Origin: Candidatus Yanofskybacteria bacterium RIFCSPLOWO2_01_FULL_42_49
GTDB lineage: Bacteria; Patescibacteriota; Minisyncoccia; 2-02-FULL-40-12; GWA2-44-9
Direction: 5' to 3'
Length of the DNA: 64,000 bases
Assembly: GCA_001795615.1 (NCBI GenBank)
Contig: MGKI01000014.1
Span: forward strand, 69,380 to 133,379
A program made the translations under genes and the position numbers. The notes beneath the pieces were generated by a model, which did no database searches, was not told the DNA's origin, and saw only the letters and a list, made by a program, of their open reading frames with translations. The first letter of the stretch is position 1. Every line of letters starts with the position of its first letter. Of the stretch, positions 5,279 through 63,374 are shown in pieces.

Positions 5279-6664
5279 ATGCTCAAGAATGTGAACCCAA
5301 ATATATTACAAATAACCAATGCCTTTATGTATACCGAATACCCCCACAAGAGTTTTTGGTCAACTGATATGGGAAGTGAAGATTGTCATTCGGCGCTACT
5401 TGAATTATTAACCGATGAGCCCAATGTCCCTCTTTTGCTCTATGTCCATATATTGTACTGCACAAAACTTTGCTGGTTCTGTAATTGTCACATAGGAGAG
5501 ATCACCCAAAGCCAAGACAAGAGAAAAGATTATCTTGAGCTTCTTTATTCAGAAATACGATTGTTTAAGAAACTTTTTGACAAACACTCTTTGGCTCCGA
5601 ATTTTACAGAAATACATCTAGGAGGCGGATCTCCTACGGATCTTAGCATGAATGACTTTAGCCGACTGGTAGAAAATTTGAGTTCAATCGTAGATATCAA
5701 AAACTTGAGTGAATTTTCTATTGAAATAGATCCAAGACACAGCAGCAGAGAAATGCTTAGATTTTACCATAACCAAGGAATAAACCGAATTTCCTTTGGA
5801 ATTCAGGACTTTGACCCTGGTGTCCAAAAAGCCATTAACAGAATCCAGCCGATAGAGCTTGTAGAAAAACTTATGGGGCCGGAAATTAGTGATCTTTTCC
5901 CCAATGGTATAAATTTTGACATTATTTGCGGCCTGCCTCATCAAACAACCGAAACAATCAAGAGAACGATGGATGAATGTGTCCGTCTTTCGCCGGATAG
6001 GATTTGCTTCAATTATCTCCACCAGGCTCCCGAATTTTCAAAACATCAGCGACTTATGTCTGACGGTAAATTTGGAAGACCAGATCATCTTCCGGATTAT
6101 TATGAGAGGAAAAAACTCTTCACTATAGCCATGGAAACATTGATTAAAGCCGGCTATATCCGCACCGGATATGACCATTTTGCCAAACCAACTGATGCCG
6201 TGGCCAAGGCGATGGCAGAAGGTAAAATGCAATGGAATGCATTGGGAGTTACTGCGGGAAGATACACCAGTATTATTGGCGTGGGAATCCAGAGTTTTAG
6301 CACAATCGGCAATTATTATTTTCAGAATTTTTATGACTTGAAAAAATACCGGGAATCTTTGAGACAAGGACAATTTCCGATTTTCCGCGGCCATCGGCAA
6401 AACCAAGATGATCTTATCAGAAGAGATGTTATTCAAACTTTAAGAAGTTTCTTTTCTATAGATTTCAGATGTATTGACGAAAAATACGCTATTAATTTTG
6501 AGGAATATTTCGATCCAGAACTTGTGGCATTAGATGATTATGTAAGGGACGGCCTGATAGAAATAAAAGACAGGTCGATTATTATTACTGAGAAAGGGCA
6601 TCAATTCGCTAATACTGTCTGTTATGTATTTGATAAATATAAAAAAAATCGGCCCAAATTTTAA
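5279..6664 (+). CDS. HemN-like radical SAM enzyme (coproporphyrinogen III oxidase-like / class C radical SAM family)
   Basis: CTKLCWFCNC gives the HemN-type CxxxCxxCxC cluster, and HLGGGSPT matches the HemN GGGTP-like motif. Length is 461 aa and a terminator follows. Confidence 0.8.
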   Translation: MLKNVNPNILQITNAFMYTEYPHKSFWSTDMGSEDCHSALLELLTDEPNVPLLLYVHILYCTKLCWFCNCHIGEITQSQDKRKDYLELLYSEIRLFKKLFDKHSLAPNFTEIHLGGGSPTDLSMNDFSRLVENLSSIVDIKNLSEFSIEIDPRHSSREMLRFYHNQGINRISFGIQDFDPGVQKAINRIQPIELVEKLMGPEISDLFPNGINFDIICGLPHQTTETIKRTMDECVRLSPDRICFNYLHQAPEFSKHQRLMSDGKFGRPDHLPDYYERKKLFTIAMETLIKAGYIRTGYDHFAKPTDAVAKAMAEGKMQWNALGVTAGRYTSIIGVGIQSFSTIGNYYFQNFYDLKKYRESLRQGQFPIFRGHRQNQDDLIRRDVIQTLRSFFSIDFRCIDEKYAINFEEYFDPELVALDDYVRDGLIEIKDRSIIITEKGHQFANTVCYVFDKYKKNRPKF

Positions 6665-6751: not shown

Positions 6752-7852
6752 ATGGGCAATGAACAAAATACAAAAGTAGCCATATCAATATCCACAATGA
6801 ACCGGCCGGATTTCTTGGCTCGTACTCTTAATTATTACGCAAAATGTAAATCCCCCCACCCGGTCTATTTGTCCGATTCAAGTAGCCCTGAAAATGTTAA
6901 GATAATTAAATCAATTCTGAAAAAACTAGATAATAAATTAGAGATACATTACAACTGGCTCCCGCCCGGGTTAGAACCCCACGAAAGAACGCTTTCTGTG
7001 GTAAAAGAAAAATACGCCCTCATTAACGGAGACGACGACTACGAAATACCGTCCACTTTAACTAAGTGCGCAGAATTTCTAGAGAATAACCCGGACTATA
7101 CTGCAGCTGGGGGTCATGGCATATCTTTTCGACTTAAAACCAGTGGTCCATACGGAGAAATAAAAAGGTTGGCCGACTATCCTTTTTATCCAATTGAAGC
7201 AAATACGGCCTCTCAAAGATTAAATGATTTTTTAAAAAAATGTTTCGTCGTCACATCCGGAGTAAATCGAGTTGAACATTTGAAGAAGATCTGGGTCATT
7301 CCGTTGCCCATAATAAACACCTGGAGCGAACTATTTCAGATAAGCCATTGCGCCGTGTCCGGTAAAATAAAATTGCTGGACTGCCTGGGCATAGTTCGGC
7401 ACATTCATGACCAGCAATATTACCTGACAAGTATGGTTGATTGGCTGACCGAAAAAGAATTCTATAATTATTATACGATATTCCAAGACCACCTTGCTAA
7501 AACAATCGCAAAAATTGACAATGTTTCCATAGACCAGGCAAAACAAACTGTTAAAAACGCCTTCTGGGAATACCTGCAAGTATATATGGCAAACGAAAAA
7601 AAAGGATTGGGGGCTAACAATGAGGAGTTAAAGACAAGCTCCCCTACTTTAAAAACGTTAAGAGTAACGCTCGGAAAGACTTTTCCTGTTTTAAAAACCG
7701 CTTACCGTCAATACTTAAGACCCTTTATCTCTGATAAACAACAGATGCATTATGACGCGATGAACTCACGCTCTCCATATTTTAAAGAGTTTCAGTTTGT
7801 AATGGATTCGTTCACGGGAAAGGATATAAAAACACATGACCAACAACAATAA
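6752..7852 (+). CDS. Divergent GT-A fold (GT2-like) glycosyltransferase, paralog 3
   Basis: TKVAISISTMNRPDFLARTL...PVYLSDSSSPEN and NGDDDYEIP share the architecture of the two paralogs at 2936-5156. It is the first gene of a long + strand operon. Confidence 0.55.
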   Translation: MGNEQNTKVAISISTMNRPDFLARTLNYYAKCKSPHPVYLSDSSSPENVKIIKSILKKLDNKLEIHYNWLPPGLEPHERTLSVVKEKYALINGDDDYEIPSTLTKCAEFLENNPDYTAAGGHGISFRLKTSGPYGEIKRLADYPFYPIEANTASQRLNDFLKKCFVVTSGVNRVEHLKKIWVIPLPIINTWSELFQISHCAVSGKIKLLDCLGIVRHIHDQQYYLTSMVDWLTEKEFYNYYTIFQDHLAKTIAKIDNVSIDQAKQTVKNAFWEYLQVYMANEKKGLGANNEELKTSSPTLKTLRVTLGKTFPVLKTAYRQYLRPFISDKQQMHYDAMNSRSPYFKEFQFVMDSFTGKDIKTHDQQQ

Positions 7853-8981
7853 ACAAAACAAAAGAAGCGTGGGATTTATCCCCTACGGCCGACAATCAAT
7901 TGATAATGATGATATTAAGGCCGTCGTTAATGTCTTGCGTTCGGACTGGTTGACCCAGGGTCCTGCGGTAAAACAATTTGAAGAGTCGCTGGCTAAATAT
8001 TGCAACGCCAAATATGCCGTAGCCGTTTCAAACGGCACGGCCGCTCTTCATTTAGCGTATTTAGCCGCCGATTTAAGCGCCGGTGATGAAGTTATCACAA
8101 CCCCAAATACATTTGCCGCAACTTCAAACATGCTCCTGGCGGTTGGAGCAAAACCTATTTTCTGTGATATACGGCTTGATAACTATAATCTTGACGAAAC
8201 AAAAATAGAAAAACTTGTCACCTCAAAAACAAAAGCCATAGTTCCGGTCCATTTTGGCGGCCATCCGTGCAATATGGACAAAATATTAAGTATGGCCAAA
8301 AAACACAGCCTGCTCGTAATTGAAGATGCTTGCCATGCTCTAGGCGCCTCATTTAAGAATGAGAAGGTTGGCGGCATCGGTGATATGTCGGTTTTCAGTT
8401 TTCATCCGGTCAAATCAATAACTACCGGTGAGGGTGGGGCAATTCTGACAAATAATCCTAAATTTTATAAAAAACTGGCCCATCTCCGAACACATGGCAT
8501 AACCAAAGATGAGGGTGGATTCAATGTTATGACCGCACTAGGTTATAACTACAGAATTACCGATATTCAGACGGCCTTGGGAATAAGTCAGTTGAAGAAA
8601 CTGGATAAATTTGTAAAAGCTAGGCAGAAGATTTTCGATATCTATAAAAAAGAGCTGGCCGGTGTAAAAGAGGTCTTCACTCCCTCTCTGGCCAAAAACT
8701 CCGTTTCTTCAAATCATCTTTTTGTAATAAGGACAAAAGACCCAACAAAAAGAAATCCTCTTGCTAATTTTCTTAAACAAAACGGCATAGGCGTAAATTT
8801 TCACTATCCAACCGTTTATTCCCACCCTTATTACAGAAAAAATGGCTATAAAGATGTAAAACTAGCCAACGCCGATCTATATCATAACTCCTGTATCACG
8901 CTTCCGCTTTATGTAACACTAGAAAAGAGCCAAATAAAATACATATGCAATAAAATAAAGGAATTCTTTAAAAAAGTTTAA
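7836..8981 (+). CDS. DegT/DnrJ/EryC1/StrS-family PLP-dependent sugar aminotransferase (PseC/LegC-like)
   Basis: Contains DWLTQGP and SNGTAALHLA, the Schiff-base lysine context FHPVKSITTGEGGAI, and YNYRITDIQTALG. The ORF overlaps the upstream gene. Confidence 0.85.
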   Translation: MTNNNKQNKRSVGFIPYGRQSIDNDDIKAVVNVLRSDWLTQGPAVKQFEESLAKYCNAKYAVAVSNGTAALHLAYLAADLSAGDEVITTPNTFAATSNMLLAVGAKPIFCDIRLDNYNLDETKIEKLVTSKTKAIVPVHFGGHPCNMDKILSMAKKHSLLVIEDACHALGASFKNEKVGGIGDMSVFSFHPVKSITTGEGGAILTNNPKFYKKLAHLRTHGITKDEGGFNVMTALGYNYRITDIQTALGISQLKKLDKFVKARQKIFDIYKKELAGVKEVFTPSLAKNSVSSNHLFVIRTKDPTKRNPLANFLKQNGIGVNFHYPTVYSHPYYRKNGYKDVKLANADLYHNSCITLPLYVTLEKSQIKYICNKIKEFFKKV

Positions 8982-9090
8982 AGTAGAGAATTAAAAGTTA
9001 AAAATCAAAGTTACAAGTTAAAATTTTTTATATATAACTTTGAATTTAAAACTTTAACTTTCAACTTTACACTTTTAACTTTTTACTTAT
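8982..9090. repeat. Palindromic AT-rich AAGTTAAAAG / AACTTTCAACTT repeat element filling the intergenic gap (copy A)
   Basis: The left arm (AAAAGTTAAAAATCAAAGTTACAAGTTAAAA) and the right arm (AACTTTGAATTTAAAACTTTAACTTTCAACTTTACACTTTTAACTTTTT) are near reverse complements. It shares the k-mers AAGTTAAAAG, ACTTTCAACT and CTTTTAACTT with copy B at 60874-61005. Confidence 0.7.
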
Positions 9091-10950
9091 ATGCAAACAT
9101 ACCTACTTTTTGAGATAGCCAATTCCTGCGCTGGGTCGAGCAAATTGATAGAAAAGTTGATAGATTCCCTACCGCAAGAGGATAATTTTGGCATTAACCC
9201 CCACACTCACTTTAGATATAGCTCAAAGAGCCAAAAACTAAAGCAAGTTAAAGTGAGTGTGGGGGTAAAATTTCAAGTTTATAAGTATAACGAAATTGCC
9301 TTATCCGACTATGAATGGTATCCGGTTTATAAGCAAACCTTCATAAATGCGCAGAATTGGAAAAAGATTTTTGCTCATGCAAAGAGCAAGGGCTTTGATA
9401 TCTGGATAGATGTTTTTGATCTATATAGCGTAGAAGTTATTAAAGATAATCTGCCGTTGGTAACCGGAATAAAACTCCAGTCTTCTGTTTTGAATAACCT
9501 CAAGGTATTGACTGCATTATCTGAAGTAATAAAAAACGGAAAGATTACGGTGATGTTAAATGTTGCCGGCAGAGACCTATCAAACATCAAAGAGTTGCTT
9601 AAAGATATAAGATCAAATTATTTTGACAATAAAATTATACTTCAAGCCGGTTTTCAGGGATATCCCACCGATAAAGAAGATCTAACCGTAAGTAAGGTCC
9701 GGATCTTAAAATCCGAATTTCCTAGTACAATAATATCTTATGCCGATCATGTTGACGGCAGTTCGCCTCTTGCGTTTGATATTCCGGTTTTTGCCGTATT
9801 GGCCGGCGCCGAGCACATAGAAAAGCATGTCTGCTTAGACAGGAAAAATACAAAATACGACTTCCAATCAGCAATTGAGCCCTATGAATGTGATCTATTA
9901 ATTTACAAGCTTAATGAAGCCGAAAAAATATTGGGAACAAAGTTTATACCAGACAAGGAAGCAAATTACCTCAAAACAACAATAGAGAAACCAATCGCTT
10001 CAGTTCATTTGAGAGCCGGCGATATTATAAATTTCAAAAACTTTGACTTTAGAAGAACCGGGCAGGAGGGGCTGACTGTAGCTGAAATAAAAGAATATAT
10101 GGAAAAAAGGTACGTACTGAAAAATGATATAAAGCCCGGGAAACCGATAACAAAAAATGATCTGAAAAAAGCCAGAGTAGGCGTTATTATCGCCTGCCGA
10201 ATGAAGTCAACCCGCTTAAAACATAAAGCCATATTACCCATTCAAGGACTGGCATCAATCGAAAGATGTATTTTGAACGCTAAAAAAATTAAATCGGCTG
10301 ATGAGATAATTTTGGCAACTTCAACCCTTGAAGAAGATCAAATTCTAAAAAAATACGCCTTAAAGCATAGGATCCGTTTTTTTGCCGGAGACCCCGAGGA
10401 TGTCATACTCCGCTATTTAGGCGTAGCTGAAAAATATAATCTTGATGTTACAATCCGAGTTACCGGTGATTGCCCGATAGTGTCGTATGAGATGGCCAAA
10501 TTTTTACTGAAAAGACATTTTGAAAAAGGTAATGATTATACTGGCCCCAAAGAATATTGTACCGGACAAAATAGCGAAATATACAGTGTAAATACATTAA
10601 AAAGAATTATAAAGTACTTGGGTGATGCCAGACATTCCGAATATATGACTTGGTATATGCTTACTAATAAAGACATCTTCCAAGTAGATATGGCCGAATT
10701 GCCCAAAGAATGGATCCGCGCTTACCGGCTAACCCTGGATGTCCAAGAAGACCTTGATATGTTTAATGCCTTATTTGAAAAATTGGGCAAAAAAGAAGTA
10801 AGCATTAAAAATGTATTCGGGGTAATTGACAAGAATCCCTGGATTCACGAACTTAACGATGCCATGGTTCTTAAATACAAATCGGATAAAAAATTAATAG
10901 ACATGCTGAATAAAGAAACGAGGATAAATCCGCCCAAAATTAAAAAATGA
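9091..10950 (+). CDS. Fusion protein: divergent NeuB-like (sialic/nonulosonic acid synthase-like TIM barrel + SAF domain) fused to an acylneuraminate cytidylyltransferase-like domain (SpsE-SpsF-like)
   Basis: N-terminal ~340 aa: the order of blocks matches NeuB (...GIKLQSSVLNNLKVL..., ...ISYADHVDGSSPLAFDIPVFAVLAGAEHIEKHVCLD...) and is followed by a SAF-like segment (VHLRAGDIINFKNFDF). C-terminal ~250 aa: ARVGVIIACRMKSTRLKHKAILPI...ILATS...IRVTGDCPIV is typical of CMP-sugar cytidylyltransferases (NeuA/PseF/SpsF). Confidence 0.6.
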   Translation: MQTYLLFEIANSCAGSSKLIEKLIDSLPQEDNFGINPHTHFRYSSKSQKLKQVKVSVGVKFQVYKYNEIALSDYEWYPVYKQTFINAQNWKKIFAHAKSKGFDIWIDVFDLYSVEVIKDNLPLVTGIKLQSSVLNNLKVLTALSEVIKNGKITVMLNVAGRDLSNIKELLKDIRSNYFDNKIILQAGFQGYPTDKEDLTVSKVRILKSEFPSTIISYADHVDGSSPLAFDIPVFAVLAGAEHIEKHVCLDRKNTKYDFQSAIEPYECDLLIYKLNEAEKILGTKFIPDKEANYLKTTIEKPIASVHLRAGDIINFKNFDFRRTGQEGLTVAEIKEYMEKRYVLKNDIKPGKPITKNDLKKARVGVIIACRMKSTRLKHKAILPIQGLASIERCILNAKKIKSADEIILATSTLEEDQILKKYALKHRIRFFAGDPEDVILRYLGVAEKYNLDVTIRVTGDCPIVSYEMAKFLLKRHFEKGNDYTGPKEYCTGQNSEIYSVNTLKRIIKYLGDARHSEYMTWYMLTNKDIFQVDMAELPKEWIRAYRLTLDVQEDLDMFNALFEKLGKKEVSIKNVFGVIDKNPWIHELNDAMVLKYKSDKKLIDMLNKETRINPPKIKK

Positions 10951-55462: not shown

Positions 55463-57724
55463 TTACAATTCTCTCCCCAAACTTCTTAAAAACATCCTGG
55501 CATCCGGTTCAAAAGACGGATCAACTTGAACCGCTTTGCGAGCCATAGCCACCGCGTCATCAATTCTTCCTAAATTGGCATATGCAGCGGCCAGTGAAGC
55601 ATAATGTTGAGGATCTCTCGGATTTACGGCAATAAGTCGTTCAAATGTTCGAGCTATATTAGGACGGTCATTTAATTCGACATAAACAGAAAGCATCCTT
55701 GAATATTCCTGTTCGCTCGGCATGTATCTGTTTTTAACCTCCAGAGACCTCTCCAGGTTCTTAATCCCGCTTTTATCGCCAGCCTGAAGTTTAGCCACCC
55801 CCAAATACCAATGAGATATTCCAGTATCAGGATTTAAGTCAACGGCTCTTTGGAAATATTCTATGGCCTTAACAAGATCTTTCTTGTTAAGATATGCTTG
55901 GGCTATTTCAAAATAAGTCCTGACAAAAGTTGGCGATAGTTCAAGAGCTTTAAGAGAATATTCAAGAGACTTATCGTTATATAATGACTCGGGATCATGC
56001 TGACCAAGCATAATATTTAACCTCGAACCGTATAAATAGGGCAGATAATCAATCGAGTTTTCTCTAATATTTTTGTCGATTTCTTCCAAAACATAAAGAT
56101 AGATCTGTCTGACCTTTTCTTCTTTCACGCTTGGGCCGCCCGCACCAACCAAGTATTGTGCAAGACGGTGTCTATAGTCATATTTACCAGGCACATCATA
56201 TAACAAGGATTCTTTATATTTATTAATAGCTCCATCAAAATCACCCTGCCAGCCCCTAACAATAGCTCTTGTGGTCGCATAGTTGGCTTTGGCTGGCAAA
56301 ATATTCGTTTTATATATCAACCATGGAATAAATATAACCAAAACTATCACAATAGTATTAAATAGGATTTTATTTGGTTTTCTAAGATTTTTAATTCGTT
56401 GCGTCTGCGCATCATTCGTATTATATCCACGCGCAAGCGCGGAAATAAGGCCCAAAATAGTAAAGAAAATAATAAAATTAGCCGAAGTATCGAAGATAAA
56501 AGAGTTATGAATTATATAGGCAACAACCAGCGGTATAAAACCGACCCCATAAATTACAAGTTCCGAATTTCTTAACCATCTGCGCAAATAAATAAACATC
56601 GCCGTGAAAATACCGAGATAAGACAGAAGGCCGGTCAGTCCCATTGTTACAAGAACCTCTACAAACATATTGTGAGCTCTGTCGAACAGTGTCTCCGCTC
56701 CCTGCCCGGCGTAAAATTTGGGGTTAAAGTATTTGGAAAACGGAATATTGAAATTCTCCGGCCCCCAACCGAGAAGAATAGTTTTAGGGCTGTCGGTCCA
56801 ACCCTTGAGTCCCGCTTCCCAGGCCCAAAAACGGGTTTCAGTTGTTTGTGATCTTAAGGACAGATCGGTTATCCTGCTCAAATATTTTGACTTTTCTATA
56901 AATTGGGAGTTCCCAAAAAGAAGCGAAAAAATAATAAAAAGAGCCGCAAAGCCAATTAAATAACTAAATGCCAATCGTCCAAAACGAGATTTCTTGTATA
57001 CTCCCCATAAAAACGCAAAAACCGTGATCCCGACCGCGTAGGCCAAAACAGACCCCCTGACTGCAGTCATTAAAGCGGCGATAGAAGTAACGGCAAAAGC
57101 AAACGCGTAGAATATTTTACGATTCTTGGTATTTTGGGAACTGAAAAATAGCGTAAGAGACAGAAATACCGCGAAAAGCTGGGAACCAGCAAATAAGGCC
57201 GCATTGCCGGTAGTACCGAATATTCTTGTCCTGTTACCGGACCCGACAAAAAACTCAATATCAGTTTTTTGTCCAAACCCATAAAATGCCGACAATACCC
57301 CGGCAACAATGGTAATGTCCAAAATTCTTTGCCAATGCTCCTTTTTTGTTAATACGGAGGTTAAGATTATATAAAATAGAAAATAGTGCCAGAATGTCCA
57401 AAGTCCGCCCATTCTTTCAAGTGTTCCCCAAAAACTAGGATATCTTAAAACACTGGTAGTGGTGGTTAAAGTAAATGCCGCGACAAAAAACAAAAACGCC
57501 CAGAATATCTTATCCCGGCGCGGTAAATAAGACCTGTCTTTCAATATCAGAATAAGATAAGCCGCTCCCAGAATTTCTATTAAACTCCTGAATACGACAA
57601 CTTTCCCGAAATGAAACGGGGAGATAAAATCCTTAAATATCACAAGCGGCACTAAAGCCGTCAGATATATACCAAAACGTAAAAATTTTATTAAACCTGA
57701 TTCTTTTTGATTGCTTCTCTCCAT
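55463..57724 (-). CDS. O-antigen ligase/Wzy_C-like polytopic membrane protein with C-terminal TPR repeats
   Basis: About 12 TM helices with a large external loop in the N-terminal ~450 aa. C-terminal TPR-like repeats follow (AQAYLNKKDLVKAIEYFQRAVDLNP...). Confidence 0.6.
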   Translation of the reverse strand: MERSNQKESGLIKFLRFGIYLTALVPLVIFKDFISPFHFGKVVVFRSLIEILGAAYLILILKDRSYLPRRDKIFWAFLFFVAAFTLTTTTSVLRYPSFWGTLERMGGLWTFWHYFLFYIILTSVLTKKEHWQRILDITIVAGVLSAFYGFGQKTDIEFFVGSGNRTRIFGTTGNAALFAGSQLFAVFLSLTLFFSSQNTKNRKIFYAFAFAVTSIAALMTAVRGSVLAYAVGITVFAFLWGVYKKSRFGRLAFSYLIGFAALFIIFSLLFGNSQFIEKSKYLSRITDLSLRSQTTETRFWAWEAGLKGWTDSPKTILLGWGPENFNIPFSKYFNPKFYAGQGAETLFDRAHNMFVEVLVTMGLTGLLSYLGIFTAMFIYLRRWLRNSELVIYGVGFIPLVVAYIIHNSFIFDTSANFIIFFTILGLISALARGYNTNDAQTQRIKNLRKPNKILFNTIVIVLVIFIPWLIYKTNILPAKANYATTRAIVRGWQGDFDGAINKYKESLLYDVPGKYDYRHRLAQYLVGAGGPSVKEEKVRQIYLYVLEEIDKNIRENSIDYLPYLYGSRLNIMLGQHDPESLYNDKSLEYSLKALELSPTFVRTYFEIAQAYLNKKDLVKAIEYFQRAVDLNPDTGISHWYLGVAKLQAGDKSGIKNLERSLEVKNRYMPSEQEYSRMLSVYVELNDRPNIARTFERLIAVNPRDPQHYASLAAAYANLGRIDDAVAMARKAVQVDPSFEPDARMFLRSLGREL

Positions 57725-57774: not shown

Positions 57775-59589
57775 CTAAAATTCCCCCAAAATAACCACCT
57801 CAGACCCCTCGAATGTTCTAATAAAATCCTCCATGCTTGTTTTTGGGTCTTTAACTTGCTCAAAATATCTGTACGCTGATTCTTTGTCTCCCTTATTAAA
57901 GTAGGCCCACCCTAAGGCAAATCTAAGCTCTTTCTGCTGAGGGTTATCGCCAAAATGTTTATGAATAAGCTCAATTGCCTCCTCCGGTTTTTCAAGGCTC
58001 ACTTTTGTCAAAGCTAAAAATAAAACTTCCGACCACCGCGGATAAATATCAACGGAATCAACTAAGACATTCTCAGCCGATTCAAAATATCCGTTTTCAT
58101 AATATAAAACTCCTAAACTTAAATAAGCCCTCAGGTAGTCAGCCCTTAACTCTATGGCTTTCTTCCACAATTCTTCCGACTTTTGGAGCTGACCTAATTT
58201 TTTGTAATTCTGTCCGGCAAGATTGAGAGCGGGAACATGTTCCGGGGCCAAATACAGTATCTTGTTTAATATCTCCTCTGCTTCCATGTACTTACCGGCT
58301 TTAAATTCCAAGTAGGCTTTGTTAGTCTGATTTACAATGCTATCAGGAGCCGCGGCATATGCGCTTTCGTATAGATTAGCGTCATTAAGCCAGTCTCGAT
58401 TCCTGTCTAGTATCAAGAACCCATAAAAAACCAAAATTATTGACACACATCCATATAAAACACGGGTATTTTTGACCCTAGGACCCAGCCACACAAAAAC
58501 AGCTCCAATCATAAAAGCAAGGCCAAGCGAGGGCATATAAAGCAACCGTTCCGCCATTATTGTGCCAGTTTTAAAAACCCAGTTGGAGATCACGAAATAA
58601 GAAGACAGGAAAATTATAATCCCGGATCGCATTAAAATATCTTTTCCCCTAAAGAGCAGCAGAACAACCAAACAGAATATAGCGATTCCCAGCATTGCTT
58701 CAAGCGAAGCAACGAGAGTTTTCACTGGTGGTATTTGGCCGAAAGAATAGTCGCTGGAAAGGTGAATCGGGAAAAAGGTCTTCACAAGATATAGATAAAA
58801 AACTTTAAACGATGTCCAAAGTCCGCTGAAAAAAGACGCAAATTTAATAGGATTGTAGACCGCCGTTGCGTCATTCTTCAAAAAATGTTCTCCCAAAGCT
58901 ATATAACGCAGGACGGCATAAAAAATAACAGATGGGATAAAATAATAAATATTTTTTACGGCTTTTTGGAAGCCAGGCTTCCAGCTGGAAGCCTGGCTTC
59001 CGGAACTAAATAATTCTAGGAACAAAAATATCGGCAAAAACGCTACGGCCATTTCCTTGCTCAATAAGCCAAGGAAGAACAAGGTAGAAGCAAAAATATA
59101 CCTTTGTTTAAGAGCAAGCAGCAGCGCTCCGATAACGAAAAGCAGAGAAAGAATCTCGGCCCTGCCTACTATTGATGTCACTGCTTCAGTATGGATCGGC
59201 AGAAACATAAAAAATAAAAAGCCGGCGAAGGCGGCTATTTTTGAAACGCTCAAACGATATAACAGAACAAACGCTAAAAAAGAAGTAAGGGCGTGAAGAA
59301 AAATATTGACAACATGAAAACCGACCGGAGAAGAGCCAAGTACAAAAGCGTTTAGAGAATAACTGGCAATAGTTAATGGCCTATAAAGCCCCGGGTGTGG
59401 CTGATAGGCGAAATAGGGGGTAATAAAAATCTTCCCAAACCCACCAAGCTGTCCGTCAATAAAAGGATTACCGACAATTACAATAGTATCGTCAAAAACA
59501 AAATCACCCCCTATCCCGTTGCCGAAAAGGACAAATGATAAAATAAGAGCCAAAACGGCAGCTAAAATTAGATCCTTAGTTCTGCCCAT
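57775..59589 (-). CDS. TMTC/PMT-like GT-C membrane glycosyltransferase with C-terminal TPR repeats, paralog A
   Basis: N-terminal GNGIGGDFVFDDTIVIVGNPFI (loop-1 acidic DD motif), ~11 TM helices, and a C-terminal TPR array (AYLEFKAGKYMEAEEILNKILYLAP...). Confidence 0.6.
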   Translation of the reverse strand: MGRTKDLILAAVLALILSFVLFGNGIGGDFVFDDTIVIVGNPFIDGQLGGFGKIFITPYFAYQPHPGLYRPLTIASYSLNAFVLGSSPVGFHVVNIFLHALTSFLAFVLLYRLSVSKIAAFAGFLFFMFLPIHTEAVTSIVGRAEILSLLFVIGALLLALKQRYIFASTLFFLGLLSKEMAVAFLPIFLFLELFSSGSQASSWKPGFQKAVKNIYYFIPSVIFYAVLRYIALGEHFLKNDATAVYNPIKFASFFSGLWTSFKVFYLYLVKTFFPIHLSSDYSFGQIPPVKTLVASLEAMLGIAIFCLVVLLLFRGKDILMRSGIIIFLSSYFVISNWVFKTGTIMAERLLYMPSLGLAFMIGAVFVWLGPRVKNTRVLYGCVSIILVFYGFLILDRNRDWLNDANLYESAYAAAPDSIVNQTNKAYLEFKAGKYMEAEEILNKILYLAPEHVPALNLAGQNYKKLGQLQKSEELWKKAIELRADYLRAYLSLGVLYYENGYFESAENVLVDSVDIYPRWSEVLFLALTKVSLEKPEEAIELIHKHFGDNPQQKELRFALGWAYFNKGDKESAYRYFEQVKDPKTSMEDFIRTFEGSEVVILGEF

Positions 59590-60216: not shown

Positions 60217-62055
60217 TCAGATATCTATGTTAAATATTTTTGTACTCTTTAAGTTCCAAAAGAACGCATCTTCAGACAAAGCCGGATCCTTCAATCCCAA
60301 AAGCAGTTCTCTCGCCCTTAAATCATCGTCTAGCTTTAAATACGCTACACCGAGGATAAATCTTAATTCATATATTTTAGGTTTTATGCCGAATTTTTCT
60401 TCAATCAAACTTATGACTTCACGGTATTCTCCTAAACCAATCTTATTAAAGGACAGGAGAGTGGTCACATTTGGAGTATCGTACATTTCTTTTGCCTTAT
60501 GGAGTATTTCTTTACCAGATCCAAAGTCACCTCTTTTATAATATAATGCCCCCAAACTAAGATACGGATAGAGATAATCCGGTTGAGCTATGGTTGCTTT
60601 CCGCCACCATTCTTCGGCAATTTTATCTTCGCCTATTCTTTTATAAATTTGTCCGCCCAGGTGTAGCGTTGGGCTGTTTTTTGGTTCAATCTCTAGGGCC
60701 TTGTTTATTTTTTCCAACGCTTCTTCGTTTTTGCCCTCTCGAAAAAGTATACTTGCCACATTGGTTATATTTACAACACTATTAGGCGCTACTGCATAGG
60801 CGCTCTCAAAAAGATTCTTTTCATTAAGCCAATCTCTGTTCCGGTCAATAATCACATATCCATACCAAACAAATAAAGTTAAAAGTGGAAAATATAAAGT
60901 TAAAAGTGAAAGTTTTAAGTTAAAAATTTTAAACCTTGAGCTTTGATTTTCCCTCGACCTGAGCTCGGGACGAAGGTTAACTTTTAACTTCAAACTTTCA
61001 ACTCCAGCTGCTATCAGCATAACCAGCCCTAGTGATGGCATATACATCAGCCGTTCGGCCATTATCGTGCCGATTTTGACAAATAAGTTGGAAACGACTA
61101 GATAAGAAAATAGGAAAATCGTTGCTCCTAACCCAACCAAACTATTGTGTTTTGATATGGACAGATAACCAATGGCCACAAAAATGCCAATTCCCGCCAG
61201 CGCTTGCCACGAATCAAATAAATTGTTTACAGCAGTGATCTGGTTGTAGGAGTAATCAGATGAAAAATAGATCGGAAAAATGATCTTCTGAGCATAAAGA
61301 CAGGCGACCTTAAAGGCCGTCCATAAACCTGGCAGAATATCCATCGCCGCAATAGGATTAAAGAAGGAGTAGGTGTTAGTGTTGATAAAGTATTCAAAGC
61401 CCAACGCATTATACCGAAGCACCGCATAAACAGCCAACGACGGAATAAAATACACGATTTTTTTAAACAAACCCATGACCGATTCTTTTCTCTGCACAAA
61501 TTCAAAGAATAAAAATATCGGAATAAAGGCAATGCCGGTTTCTTTGCTCAACAAAGACAGAAAGAAAAAAACGGCAGCTGTCTTATAATAACCCTTCTTG
61601 ATTGATAAAAACGAGGCCAAGAAAAATAAGAACATCAAAAGTTCGCTCCTACCGGCAATCGAAGTCACTGCCTCAACATGAATAGGTAAAAATAAAAACA
61701 ACAACGAACTGACAATGGCCGTCGTTCTGTTTTTAAATCCTGACACGATTAAATAGATTAAAAATGAGGCGACGGCGTGAAGAAATATGTTAACCAAATG
61801 AAAACTTTGAGGTTGTCCGGGGGAAATACGCCAATTTAAAACATAACTGGCTATAGTTAGGGGACGATAAAGCCCTGATTGAAGCCGATCATAGTGATAA
61901 GGATGTAAAAAGGTCTTAAATACTCCAACAGAATCTTCCATTAGCGGATTGTCGGTAACTACCGAATGATCGTCAAACACAAAATCGCCATTAATACCGT
62001 TGCCGAAGAGAACAAGTGACAGAACAATAATAAGCGAGAAAATTAATTTATCCAT
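60217..62055 (-). CDS. TMTC/PMT-like GT-C membrane glycosyltransferase with C-terminal TPR repeats, paralog B
   Basis: GNGINGDFVFDDHSVVTDNPLM, ~11 TM helices and a C-terminal TPR array. It carries an in-frame ~22 aa insertion relative to paralog A, encoded by repeat copy B. Confidence 0.6.
   Translation of the reverse strand: MDKLIFSLIIVLSLVLFGNGINGDFVFDDHSVVTDNPLMEDSVGVFKTFLHPYHYDRLQSGLYRPLTIASYVLNWRISPGQPQSFHLVNIFLHAVASFLIYLIVSGFKNRTTAIVSSLLFLFLPIHVEAVTSIAGRSELLMFLFFLASFLSIKKGYYKTAAVFFFLSLLSKETGIAFIPIFLFFEFVQRKESVMGLFKKIVYFIPSLAVYAVLRYNALGFEYFINTNTYSFFNPIAAMDILPGLWTAFKVACLYAQKIIFPIYFSSDYSYNQITAVNNLFDSWQALAGIGIFVAIGYLSISKHNSLVGLGATIFLFSYLVVSNLFVKIGTIMAERLMYMPSLGLVMLIAAGVESLKLKVNLRPELRSRENQSSRFKIFNLKLSLLTLYFPLLTLFVWYGYVIIDRNRDWLNEKNLFESAYAVAPNSVVNITNVASILFREGKNEEALEKINKALEIEPKNSPTLHLGGQIYKRIGEDKIAEEWWRKATIAQPDYLYPYLSLGALYYKRGDFGSGKEILHKAKEMYDTPNVTTLLSFNKIGLGEYREVISLIEEKFGIKPKIYELRFILGVAYLKLDDDLRARELLLGLKDPALSEDAFFWNLKSTKIFNIDI
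60874..61005. repeat. Palindromic AAGTTAAAAG / ACTTTCAACT repeat element (copy B) located in-frame inside the GT-C gene
   Basis: AAAGTTAAAAGTGGAAAATATAAAGTTAAAAGTGAAAGTTTTAAGTTAAAAA ... GGTTAACTTTTAACTTCAAACTTTCAACTCC, with inverted-repeat arms around a GAGCTC-centred core. It is related to copy A at 8982-9090. Confidence 0.7.
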
Positions 62056-62078: not shown

Positions 62079-62113
62079 ACTAAAATAAAAGGCTCATCGT
62101 GATAAGCCTTTTA
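62079..62113. terminator. Hairpin terminator downstream of - strand gene 62133-63374
   Basis: AAGGCT-CATCGTGATA-AGCCTT flanked by A-tract/T-tract on both sides. Confidence 0.45.
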
Positions 62114-62132
62114 TTATTCAAATTTTTAGTTT

Positions 62133-63374
62133 TTAGATCTTTTCCAAATAATCACCATGAACCCACCCTTCTTTGCCCTCAAATGTTATCTTGTGCCATA
62201 AACCACTTTTGCCCAAACTCGTTACTTTGTCGCCAGCATCAAGCTGTCCCAAAATTGAACCTGCGGTACTAGCCGATGATCTGACGTTAAGGAACCCAAC
62301 ACTAGAAACAATCTTGTACTGATTGGCTGTTGATACGGTAGTTCCAGAAGATGCAGTTCCAGAAGATGAGGTAGCTTTTCTTGTATAATCGGGTATTTGA
62401 TTTACGGAAGTATAATCAGATCCCTTTGGGTACCAATTAAACTCTTTAGTATTTATACAGAAAACCTTTTTAAAGAAATTGGGATCGTCGGCAACAGCTT
62501 GCGCTCCGGTAGTGTTAACCCAGTGAAGTTTCCCTGTATCTTCGCCGGTGGTTTCCACACCATAAACTTTTACATCATTAGTTTCGCAATTTCTGAAAAG
62601 ACCAGAGGTTACGAACACATCCCTCGTCGTAGATGTAGCGCTTTTAATCTTGGAAAATCCGCCAAGATGGCCATAGAATCCAAATATCGCAGGATTTAAG
62701 AATAACCTTTTATAACCATGCGGGTTAACTATATAAACATCGGGGTCACTTGAACCGGCGGCACTAATGACATCACCGTCTTTTAAGCTTACGGCCGCCA
62801 AGCTGACGAACCCTTGTGAGGCCGGGGTTGGCTTGCTTGTTGAAACAGATGTGGGCGACACAGTCGGGGTCGGCGTCACTGAAACCGCCGGACTCACTGT
62901 CGGAGTTGGAGTCGGAGTTGGAGTTGCCGTAGTCGTGGTCGTGGTTGTAGTTGTGGTCGTTCCGCCTCCACCACCACCTCCACCACCACTATTTCCTGCG
63001 GTACCGCAAGCATTCGAGCTGGGTGTTATTATTACCGTTTTTGTAGAACTAGGAGCTATCGTCAATTCCGACTTATCGCTGAAACATTCGTATTCAAAAG
63101 CGCTGTCATTGGTCAACAATTTCCTATCAGACGATCGAAGCTTAAATGTCTGACCAGAGGTAATCTCAATGGTTATGGTGGTATTGGTAGTTATTATCGA
63201 ATTTACCACGGAACCGTCTACTATCGTCATGTTTCCCACATCAAGAGCAACAGTTGTGTCTCCAGTAGAAGTGGCGGTTGTAGCATTGGTTTTGTTTACT
63301 CCGACCAATAGCAGTCCTGCCATTAAAACAATAACGAGTAACGGCAGAAAAAAGTTAGTTTTTAATAATTTCAT
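62133..63374 (-). CDS. Secreted protein with Gly9-Thr11-(Thr-Pro)n linker and C-terminal SH3b-like domain
   Basis: Signal peptide MKLLKTNFFLPLLVIVLMAGLLLVG, then the linker GGGGGGGGGTTTTTTTTTTTATPTPTPTPTVSPAVSVTPTPTVSPTSVSTSKPTP. The C-terminus ...GFLNVRSSASTAGSILGQLDAGDKVTSLGKSGLWHKITFEGKEGWVHGDYL is SH3_3-like. Confidence 0.6.
   Translation of the reverse strand: MKLLKTNFFLPLLVIVLMAGLLLVGVNKTNATTATSTGDTTVALDVGNMTIVDGSVVNSIITTNTTITIEITSGQTFKLRSSDRKLLTNDSAFEYECFSDKSELTIAPSSTKTVIITPSSNACGTAGNSGGGGGGGGGTTTTTTTTTTTATPTPTPTPTVSPAVSVTPTPTVSPTSVSTSKPTPASQGFVSLAAVSLKDGDVISAAGSSDPDVYIVNPHGYKRLFLNPAIFGFYGHLGGFSKIKSATSTTRDVFVTSGLFRNCETNDVKVYGVETTGEDTGKLHWVNTTGAQAVADDPNFFKKVFCINTKEFNWYPKGSDYTSVNQIPDYTRKATSSSGTASSGTTVSTANQYKIVSSVGFLNVRSSASTAGSILGQLDAGDKVTSLGKSGLWHKITFEGKEGWVHGDYLEKI
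62860..63000. repeat. Low-complexity tandem repeats in DNA encoding the Thr/Pro linker and poly-Gly
   Basis: GTCGGAGTTGGAGTCGGAGTTGGAGTTGCC, GTCGTGGTCGTGGTTGTAGTTGTGGTCGTT and CCGCCTCCACCACCACCTCCACCACC on the + strand. Confidence 0.8.

Follow-up and report, generated by a model that had tools for sequence, protein, structure and literature searches.

The window analysed here is a 64,000-nucleotide (64-kb) stretch of a contig from Candidatus Yanofskybacteria bacterium RIFCSPLOWO2_01_FULL_42_49, a bacterium of the Candidate Phyla Radiation (CPR, Patescibacteria). One of its genes, for a membrane protein with a C-terminal TPR domain, contains within its reading frame an imperfect palindrome whose arms are arrays of the heptamer AAAAGTN and its mirror NACTTTT. 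We consider it best explained, with a probability of about 0.6, as a widespread heptamer-array hairpin that was co-opted in frame, is old, sits on a recombining patch of the gene and is still conserved at the nucleotide level. Its class membership, in-frame translation potential, age, nucleotide-level conservation and the mosaicism of its surroundings are demonstrated by comparing sequences. The gene, its tandem paralog, the parts of the element and a second copy in the window are as follows.

60217..62055, minus strand: host gene; its 612-aa product passes the membrane several times, has a TPR domain at the C-terminus and is PMT_2/TMTC-like (below the Pfam threshold)
57775..59589, minus strand: tandem paralog, element-free, 46% identity to the host gene, used as comparison
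60865..61002, minus strand: whole in-frame element (V352-W397), an imperfect palindrome of AAAAGTN/NACTTTT heptamers plus a nested GC-rich hairpin
60977..61002, minus strand: A-rich arm (sense strand GTTGAAAGTTTGAAGTTAAAAGTTAA), encoding VESLKLKV(N), the predicted Lys-rich C-terminal extension of the penultimate membrane helix
60950..60976, minus strand: nested 27-nt GC-rich hairpin (sense CCTTCGTCCCGAGCTCAGGTCGAGGGA), 9 codons, within NLRPELRSRE
60865..60949, minus strand: centre and T-rich arm (sense AAATCAAAGCTCAAGG TTTAAAATTTTTAACTTAAAACTTTCACTTTTAACTTTATATTTTCCACTTTTAACTTTATTTGTTTGG), encoding NQSSRFKIFNLKLSLLTLYFPLLTLFVW, the loop end and the predicted N-terminal half of the last membrane helix
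8972..9090, no strand assigned: intergenic copy, with an A-rich arm at ~8972-9026, a T-rich arm at ~9035-9090 and no GC core

Across the in-gene element, the gene frame is the only stop-free frame of the six (1-8 stops in the others). The reading frame is thus preserved, as a preliminary description of the sequence had proposed. Alignment with the paralog bears out the 22 additional residues in the host gene, which appear as gaps of 6 and 16 with the frame kept. These residues had been assigned to a loop. They are absent from the paralog and lie between the last two membrane helices, but they are composite, and the element also supplies half of the last helix. The span flagged at the time, 60874-61005, needs a small correction, as the block conserved among orthologs is a little wider, 60865-61002 (V352-W397).

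The composite nature of the insertion is evident from the ortholog locus L007, whose copy is collinear with the window copy except for 27 missing nt, which are the GC-rich hairpin. Hence, the window copy consists of an AT-rich palindrome with a GC-rich hairpin nested in it. Nine of the 22 extra residues come from the hairpin and ~13 net from the palindrome. The AT-rich part encodes ~35 aa although the net gain is only ~13 aa; the remainder replaces ancestral loop and helix residues. The 27-nt region is identical in the ortholog P0021, and its status as a repeat is unproven because no second copy exists in the window or in any fetched locus. Within the T-rich part, 21 nt are duplicated in tandem (60868-60888 / 60889-60909). 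A perfect AAAAGTT array would place TAA in every frame once per 21 nt, and the 21-nt super-period of the coding copy would then correspond to one unit in three keeping TTAA.

In L008, a different GC-rich insert of ~75 nt is located a few bases away from the position of the 27-nt insert. This insert (L008:1153-1236, ortholog P0008) encodes PFDGFNKLTVVRNSNHKLRVISLSKD, and its ends, CCATTCGAC ... TCGAAGGAC, are inverted repeats. We take it to resemble the widespread small GC-rich hairpin repeats known as 'FDKLR/SLSK' peptides. The small dispersed repeats (SDR) of cyanobacteria, reportedly described by Elhai and co-workers in 2008, are said to be tiny palindromes that insert themselves into repeats of other kinds. 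The 27-nt hairpin of the window, for which a second copy is missing in the window and the fetched loci, and the ~75-nt insert of L008 are similar to them in this respect.

An AlphaFold model of the host protein (mean predicted local distance difference test, pLDDT, of 81) shows what the parts of the element would contribute. Helix 337-359 is the penultimate membrane helix and continues through ESLKLKV. Between this helix and the next, residues 360-380 lack helical structure, and pLDDT drops to <50 in the core peptide (364-379). Helix 381-409 is the last membrane helix, and its first half (KLSLLTLYFPLLTLFV) derives from the T-rich arm. As the T-rich arm encodes the first half of this helix in the model, the element is not a pure loop insertion. 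The genetic code itself would provide the mapping: the A-rich arm would be read as a Lys-rich juxtamembrane segment (ESLKLKV), the centre, together with the later 27-nt GC-hairpin insertion, as a disordered loop, and the T-rich arm as Leu/Phe/Thr-rich sequence from which the N-terminal half of the last membrane helix is built.

Both sites in the window are imperfect palindromes with a common mirrored architecture. The words AAGTT and AACTT, counted per 130 nt across the 64 kb, cluster only at 8959-9088 (9/130 nt) and 60873-61002 (7/130 nt), against a window mean of 0.47 and 4 at the next-best site. AAGTTAAAAG, exact or with one mismatch, clusters at these two sites as well (8972-9090 and 60865-61002). 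A heptamer-array detector that requires three successive AAAAGT units and allows <=3 mismatches over all of them picks out four arms in the 64 kb, the two of either element and no others; shuffled windows give ~0.3. All four arms have at least three contiguous 7-nt units, and period-7 and period-21 structure is visible. Relative to dinucleotide shuffles, folding gives a z of -2.2 for the in-gene copy and of -3.1 for the intergenic copy.

Local alignment of one copy against the other scores 38. None of 1000 dinucleotide shuffles reaches this value (14-16, standard deviation (sd) 2.5, maximum 26), and other 109-nt windows score <=18, including twenty with >=75% A+T. The inverted AT-rich repeat that had been noticed at both sites is therefore real, and the likeness is not confined to low-complexity A/T k-mers. 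A chance likeness of such words could be suspected because both regions are AT-rich, the words are short and the k-mers shared over the whole window show only a modest excess (23 vs 15.0 in shuffles, sd 3.6). Given the alignment scores, the restriction of detector matches to these two sites and the mirrored architecture of both copies, we regard this explanation as negligible.

The intergenic copy fills the entire spacer between a DegT-family aminotransferase gene (7836-8981, stop 8979-8981) and a NeuB/cytidylyltransferase fusion gene (9091-10950), and 8972-9090 has stops in all six frames. In all four places examined, out of 14 contigs with the DegT protein, the 109-nt spacer is unchanged, and an empty site was not found among these four. 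A third copy is absent from the 64 kb and from the ~8 kb that locus L001 adds past the window end. The intergenic window copy scores 60-64.5 against intergenic copies of Falkowbacteria, Kuenenbacteria and a Yanofskybacteria relative, 39.5 against the in-gene copy and 34.6 for the class mean. Judged by these scores, the relationship between the two window copies is not the closest that either has within the class. A further intergenic copy (L009:1766-1859) adjoins a GT-C paralog of a relative.

Past the DegT stop codon (TAA, 8979-8981), the DegT frame is stop-free through the whole intergenic element, with 4-5 stops in each of the other five frames. Its readout is ELKVKNQSYKLKFFIYNFEFKTLTFNFTLLTF, in the same peptide register as the in-gene peptide of L007. 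The L009 intergenic copy has stops in every frame. On the other side, NeuB (sialic/nonulosonic acid synthase) and CTP_transf_3 (cytidylyltransferase) are combined in a single 619-aa open reading frame (ORF), 9091-10950, that starts right at the hairpin end and has no visible Shine-Dalgarno sequence.

The age of the in-gene copy was assessed with orthologs, for which DNA was fetched as loci L007, L008, L009 and L129-L137. The element occurs at matching codon positions in P0007 (L007, 68% identity), P0008 and P0011 (L131/L132), which span 63-68% identity, and also in the closer relative P0021. It is absent from P0002-P0006 (71-77% identity), P0009 and the paralog. Since orthologs of 63-68% identity carry the element at the same place, the in-gene copy is not a recent insertion, and the earlier suggestion to that effect is not supported.

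The element lies in a mosaic patch. Compared with P0002, the window protein reaches 75-95% identity in every part but one: over residues ~340-410 the figure is 7-32%, and P0007, P0008 and P0011 are the closer sequences there. A neighbour-joining tree without the patch (no bootstrap) nests the window gene inside the P0002-6 group. The patch-only tree (no bootstrap) places all DRNxDW-type sequences together and thus disagrees with the tree of the rest of the gene. L137, a paralog-type gene, has an identical stretch immediately downstream of the element. From the drop in identity, the discordant trees and the L137 stretch, it follows that the segment was exchanged among orthologs and paralogs. 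The patch phylogeny points to gene conversion or recombination among tandem GT-C/TPR genes. By alignment, the difference from the nearest orthologs is a replaced patch of ~90 codons and not a simple insertion or gap. At the in-gene site, the nearest element-free orthologs differ by this diverged patch, and the junction is unreadable. Set against the species splits, the element is old, and the patch that carries it has recombined among both orthologs and paralogs.

The patch (window residues ~340-425; L137; L129/L130) comprises the loop, the last membrane helix and DRNRDWLNEK...APNS, and is partly shared with paralog-type genes.

The preliminary description called the repeat similar to a miniature inverted-repeat transposable element (MITE). 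In this scenario, a recent transposition placed the palindrome into a permissive loop, where it kept the frame by chance and is merely tolerated. That the palindrome is small, recurs elsewhere in the window and is missing from the paralog and the closest orthologs fits such an event, as does a 17-nt identity (AAAAGTTAAAAATCAAA) between the intergenic window copy and the in-gene copy of L007. The nested GC-rich inserts differ by lineage, as would be expected with active small mobile hairpins, and in-frame palindromic elements are known from Rickettsia (PMC10969869). Against it stand the orthologs of 63-68% identity with the element at the same codon positions and, in the AlphaFold model, the fact that the element encodes half of a required membrane helix and not a loop alone, with an AT-rich net gain of ~13 aa. 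Discrete terminal repeats, a target-site duplication or an empty site were not found in the copies compared; the whole element is one long imperfect palindrome. A transposase does not recur near the 119 loci listed for the wider class described below. Only two copies exist in 64 kb, and none of ~93 class members elsewhere, among the matches listed, is inside a real gene. Hence, we consider a recent MITE-like transposition unlikely.

Synonymous divergence (dS) and its relation to non-synonymous divergence (dN/dS) were estimated with the Nei-Gojobori method for the four in-gene DNA copies. Across pairs, dS of the element is 0.18-0.35 with dN/dS of ~1 (0.4-1.1). In the adjoining 30 codons, dS is 0.6-2.0 (one pair saturated) and in the rest of the gene 1.0-2.5, with dN/dS of ~0.1 in both. 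Three pairs illustrate the contrast.

Window and L007: element dS 0.18, dN 0.19, dN/dS 1.0; adjacent 30 codons dS 1.73 (dN/dS 0.07); rest of gene dS 2.5 (dN/dS 0.09)
L007 and L008 (closest pair): element dS 0.28; adjacent 30 codons dS 0.59; rest of gene dS 1.0
Window and L132: element dS 0.35; adjacent 30 codons dS 2.0; rest of gene dS 2.3

The contrast between element and flanks is also present in window-L008, window-L132 and L007-L132, and is weaker in L007-L008. In counts, window and L007 differ by 3.5 synonymous changes over 22 sites in the element and by 12.5 over 18 sites in the adjacent 30 codons. Third-position identity is maximal in the element (77-86% vs ~50% elsewhere). In codon alignments of the pairs inspected, the low-divergence block extends from GAA AGT to GTT TGG, which are exactly the element ends. 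P0021 has 100% identity to the window protein over residues 341-396; outside this stretch the figure is 80-95%.

The slow and equal change of the element at all codon positions suggests that constraint or homogenisation has acted on the nucleic acid. Whatever preserves the element would therefore seem to act on DNA or RNA (the heptamer motif or the hairpin) and not on the peptide. The earlier statement that the insertion is tolerated in a loop falls short, given the strong conservation of synonymous sites within the element.

Low synonymous divergence could also arise without function if the site were repeatedly overwritten, either by ectopic gene conversion from intergenic copies or by short-tract interspecies recombination. 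The patch around the element has been shown to be a mosaic, the stretch that directly follows the element is identical in L137, and palindromes are break-prone and hence repair-prone. However, the conserved block stops exactly at the element ends, and recombination tracts need flanking homology; they are an unlikely cause because divergence is saturated directly outside in most pairs, the closest pair excepted. The in-gene copies score 61 among each other and 39.5 against the intergenic copy of the same genome, which makes overwriting by the latter unlikely. Taken as a whole, functionless overwriting has a small chance of being correct, comparable to that of the MITE-like transposition.

The heptamer arrays are not confined to this organism. 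A scan with the pattern AAGTTAAAAN{40,70}ACTTTTAACTT, restricted to one genome per species, returned at least 119 loci, and the class counts given here apply to the matches listed. Heptamer arrays are present on both arms in 81/119; viral contigs, searched with the same pattern as a control for chance matches, have arrays in only 4/43 matches. The array loci belong to Bacteroidota (28), CPR (15), Gammaproteobacteria (8), Nitrospirota/Nitrospinota (7), Acidobacteriota (7), Cyanobacteria (4), Chloroflexota (3) and others, and their G+C content ranges from 0.28 to 0.68. With members at 28-68% G+C in many phyla, a common generating mechanism or a common reader has to be assumed. A typical member has the form (AAAAGTN)n, a unique and often GC-rich hairpin or spacer, and (NACTTTT)n. 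Variant units are mirrored in order, as in Hymenobacter L048, L107 and L115, and AAAATTC units are mixed with AAAAGTC/T.

Almost all of the ~93 array pairs are intergenic and nearly fill the spacer, with medians of 19 and 11.5 nt to the flanking ORFs. An all-against-all BLASTP of 719 ORFs from the 119 loci listed revealed no recurrent neighbour gene or transposase; the widest family is found in only 7 loci. Three class members appeared to lie inside ORFs. One is upstream of where a Mur ligase gene truly starts, and two are in ORFs without a Pfam match; such cases are artefactual, produced in GC-rich genomes by long but spurious ORFs or by ORFs extended too far. A peptide search of 5.8 billion proteins with the translated element gave no candidate, as the number of shared indexed words was too small for in-frame copies in other protein families to surface. 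Thus, none of the ~93 class members elsewhere is inside a real gene, and the coding copy is known only from the GT-C/TPR family described here. In the mechanism we favour, these hairpins, each made of an AAAAGTN array, a variable, often GC-rich centre and a mirror NACTTTT array, would normally fill intergenic spacers. In one Yanofskybacteria lineage of the membrane-plus-TPR (GT-C-like) genes, such a hairpin would have been taken into the reading frame, at the linker before the last membrane helix.

On the Shapirobacteria contig L015, three heptamer-array hairpins occur within 8 kb (2110-2181, 5870-5955, 7925-7996), so the density can far exceed the two per 64 kb of the window. In Alloalcanivorax/Alcanivorax (65-68% G+C; L030, L039, L075, L086, L104), AT-rich arms of AAAGTTN heptamers flank a shared GC-rich core, which starts with AAAACGCGGG in L030, L086 and L104 and with AAAAAGCGCGGG in L039. 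The flanking genes are non-orthologous, and these loci look like a dispersed genus-level family in very GC-rich genomes.

Alternatively, the in-gene copy may have arisen in situ. Where the genome is AT-rich, the coding sequence of a Lys-rich loop and of the Leu/Phe-rich helix after it, A-rich and then T-rich, forms a quasi-palindrome, which heptamer slippage and intrastrand template switching could sharpen; the likeness to intergenic copies would then be convergent. The inter-helix loop does carry unrelated in-frame repeats in other family members, and the linker looks like a hotspot of 7-nt repeats. L134:4032-4095 has inverted AAAGCGC/GCGCTTT arrays with 30-nt arms that add only 3 aa. L133:2651-2694, in a 63%-identical ortholog, is a perfect 44-bp palindrome in frame, 22+22 nt without spacer (AATACAAAGGGCATCTTTGTTG/CAACAAAGATGCCCTTTGTATT), with an RNA fold z of -7.6 and no other copies in any fetched locus. 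Direct repeats are found in L137:270-297 (four TTATAGC units) and in L009:4900-4930 (four AGTGATC/AGTGGTC units), and L136:214-271 has ATTTTCA and CAAAATT arrays. For the inserts of L133 and L008, no further copies exist among the fetched loci.

Because of these unrelated repeats at the same loop, an in-situ origin by slippage and template switching stays alive as a rival. Heptanucleotide repeats are moreover the commonest long simple repeats in prokaryotes, according to Mrazek 2007 as cited in PMC4679880. Nevertheless, long exact words recur in the in-gene and the intergenic copies, the order of units agrees, as does the peptide register (ELKVKNQSYKLKFFIYNF vs SLKLKVKNQNLKFKIFNF), and slippage leaves the fixity of synonymous sites between species unexplained. 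We therefore judge an in-situ origin improbable, though slightly less so than a recent transposition. A folding survey found the loop region more structured than the rest of the gene in 13/15 genes, clearly so in ~5, and a hairpin at this loop position may itself be favoured.

On the side of function, the nucleotide-level conservation leads us to infer a nucleic-acid function that the in-gene element shares with the intergenic copies. Our leading guess is that a general single-strand-binding factor binds the U/T-rich heptamers of an RNA or single-stranded DNA hairpin, which would serve as a 3'-end, termination or translation-modulating element. A more far-reaching proposal is that the AAAAGTN/NACTTTT arrays are a single constrained nucleic-acid element across phyla, read per heptamer, for example, by a cold-shock-domain protein or S1, with the GT-C copy under dual constraint. 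We hold this to be doubtful. If true, such hairpins would be ready-made membrane-helix modules, since A-rich arms give Lys-rich and T-rich arms Leu/Phe-rich sequence in either orientation.

Several observations weigh against co-option of a functional hairpin. The hairpin is kept in the window copy (z -2.2) and in L007 (z -3.0), whereas the L132 copy has lost it (z -0.2), counter to an indispensable structure; the constraint is therefore not absolute. The comparison comprises four in-gene DNA copies, and dS is based on ~21-28 synonymous sites per pair. The low divergence could reflect repeated recent copying into the same site. The abundance and taxonomic spread seen are those of a scan that selected one heptamer type and gave at least 119 loci. 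The orientation of flanking genes is only mildly skewed (48 co-directional, 20 convergent and 10 divergent among the matches listed). Against Rfam 15, neither the window nor any of six representative loci gave a match at the gathering score, and a literature search by repeat sequence and keywords retrieved direct heptamer repeats only, no inverted arrays. A scan for the intrinsic terminator consensus calls neither window copy.

A pure terminator role was considered and is supported neither by this consensus scan nor by the orientation of the flanking genes. The in-gene GC hairpin is followed by A on the sense strand and by TTAACTTTTAACTT on the antisense strand, which is merely U-rich.

To our knowledge, in-frame palindromic repeats are textbook material only for Rickettsia, and the present case is an in-frame palindromic repeat from the Candidate Phyla Radiation. 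According to the model, the repeat supplies part of a membrane helix. Synonymous conservation ~10x that of the flanks is a signature of a nucleic-acid element that overlaps a coding region. Beyond this gene, the mirrored heptamer arrays are a class of hairpins on which little has been published, and culturable carriers (Hymenobacter, Alloalcanivorax, Nostoc) make the question testable.

Rickettsia palindromic elements (RPEs) are palindromes of ~100-150 bp that occur in intergenic regions and in frame in genes (Ogata et al. 2000, 2002, as summarised in PMC10969869). They are alike in that a palindrome of that size lies in frame in an intact gene, and the RPE peptide is found where the fold tolerates it. 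RPEs differ in occupying many unrelated genes of one genus and in having sequence-defined families and a conserved peptide. The window element, in contrast, is restricted to one gene family, has tandem-heptamer arms shared across phyla and provides part of a membrane helix through its T-rich arm.

The second relevant group of known repeats is cyanobacterial. The short tandemly repeated repetitive (STRR) sequences of cyanobacteria were reportedly described by Mazel and co-workers in 1990. In Nostoc PCC 7120, contiguous heptamer arrays of TTTTGAA/TTCAAAA are located near start codons (bioRxiv 10.1101/2022.06.06.494920). Like the class described here, the cyanobacterial heptamer repeats and STRR have tandem 7-nt units of A4/T4 type, are mostly intergenic near gene ends and have a suspected binding protein. 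Unlike it, they are described as direct arrays; here, the arrays form mirror-image hairpin pairs that extend far beyond cyanobacteria, and one is translated.

TAACTGA heptamers of Beggiatoaceae, Cyanobacteria and Bacteroidetes are tandem, intergenic and adjoin start codons, and binders of the S1 or cold-shock protein (CSP) type have been proposed (PMC4679880). They have in common with our class a tandem, specific heptamer and the same unusual set of phyla. Their unit is another one, they are almost always direct (one inverted case/170 sets), and no in-frame coding role is reported (PMC4679880). Repetitive extragenic palindromic (REP) sequences and REPINs with their REP-associated tyrosine (RAYT) transposases are short extragenic palindromes in dispersed families (PMC3116915; PMC8266576), and the loci L030, L039, L086 and L104, a genus-specific family with a shared core, can be compared with them. 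They differ in that they are fixed palindromes of 20-40 nt, whereas the class here has arrays of variable units and, among the loci listed, neither a RAYT nor a recurrent gene nearby.

Twenty contigs encode the identical host protein, insert included; they come from independent assemblies, at ENA and JGI, of groundwater samples of the Rifle type, and the longest is a scaffold of 188,658 bp. As these contigs were assembled independently, the insert is not an assembly artefact. The protein scores 22.8 bits against PMT_2 (cutoff 26.1) and matches several TPR families in Pfam; a weak TMTC_DUF1736 match is found in the paralog 57775-59589. PF13231 is precomputed on close homologs of the host protein, and P0006 is a protein O-mannosyl-transferase in JGI naming. 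The N-terminal 331 aa gave no match to PDB sequences, and a Foldseek search of the model against the PDB retrieved TPR proteins only, which does not settle the GT-C assignment.

The overall G+C content of the window is ~39%. Around the host gene, a large surface-glycan cluster (window 55463-57724 and L001:1-7093) contains an O-antigen-ligase (Wzy_C)-TPR fusion, at least four consecutive PMT_2/TPR membrane proteins, several GT4/GT2 glycosyltransferases and an SH3_3 protein. A terminator-like hairpin, well formed and with a stem of 14 pairs (AATAAAAGGCTTATCACGATGAGCCTTTTATT), is located at 62084-62115 on the minus strand, in the gap that separates gene 62133-63374 from the start of the GT-C gene. 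An A tract precedes and a T tract follows this hairpin, which is therefore of bidirectional design.

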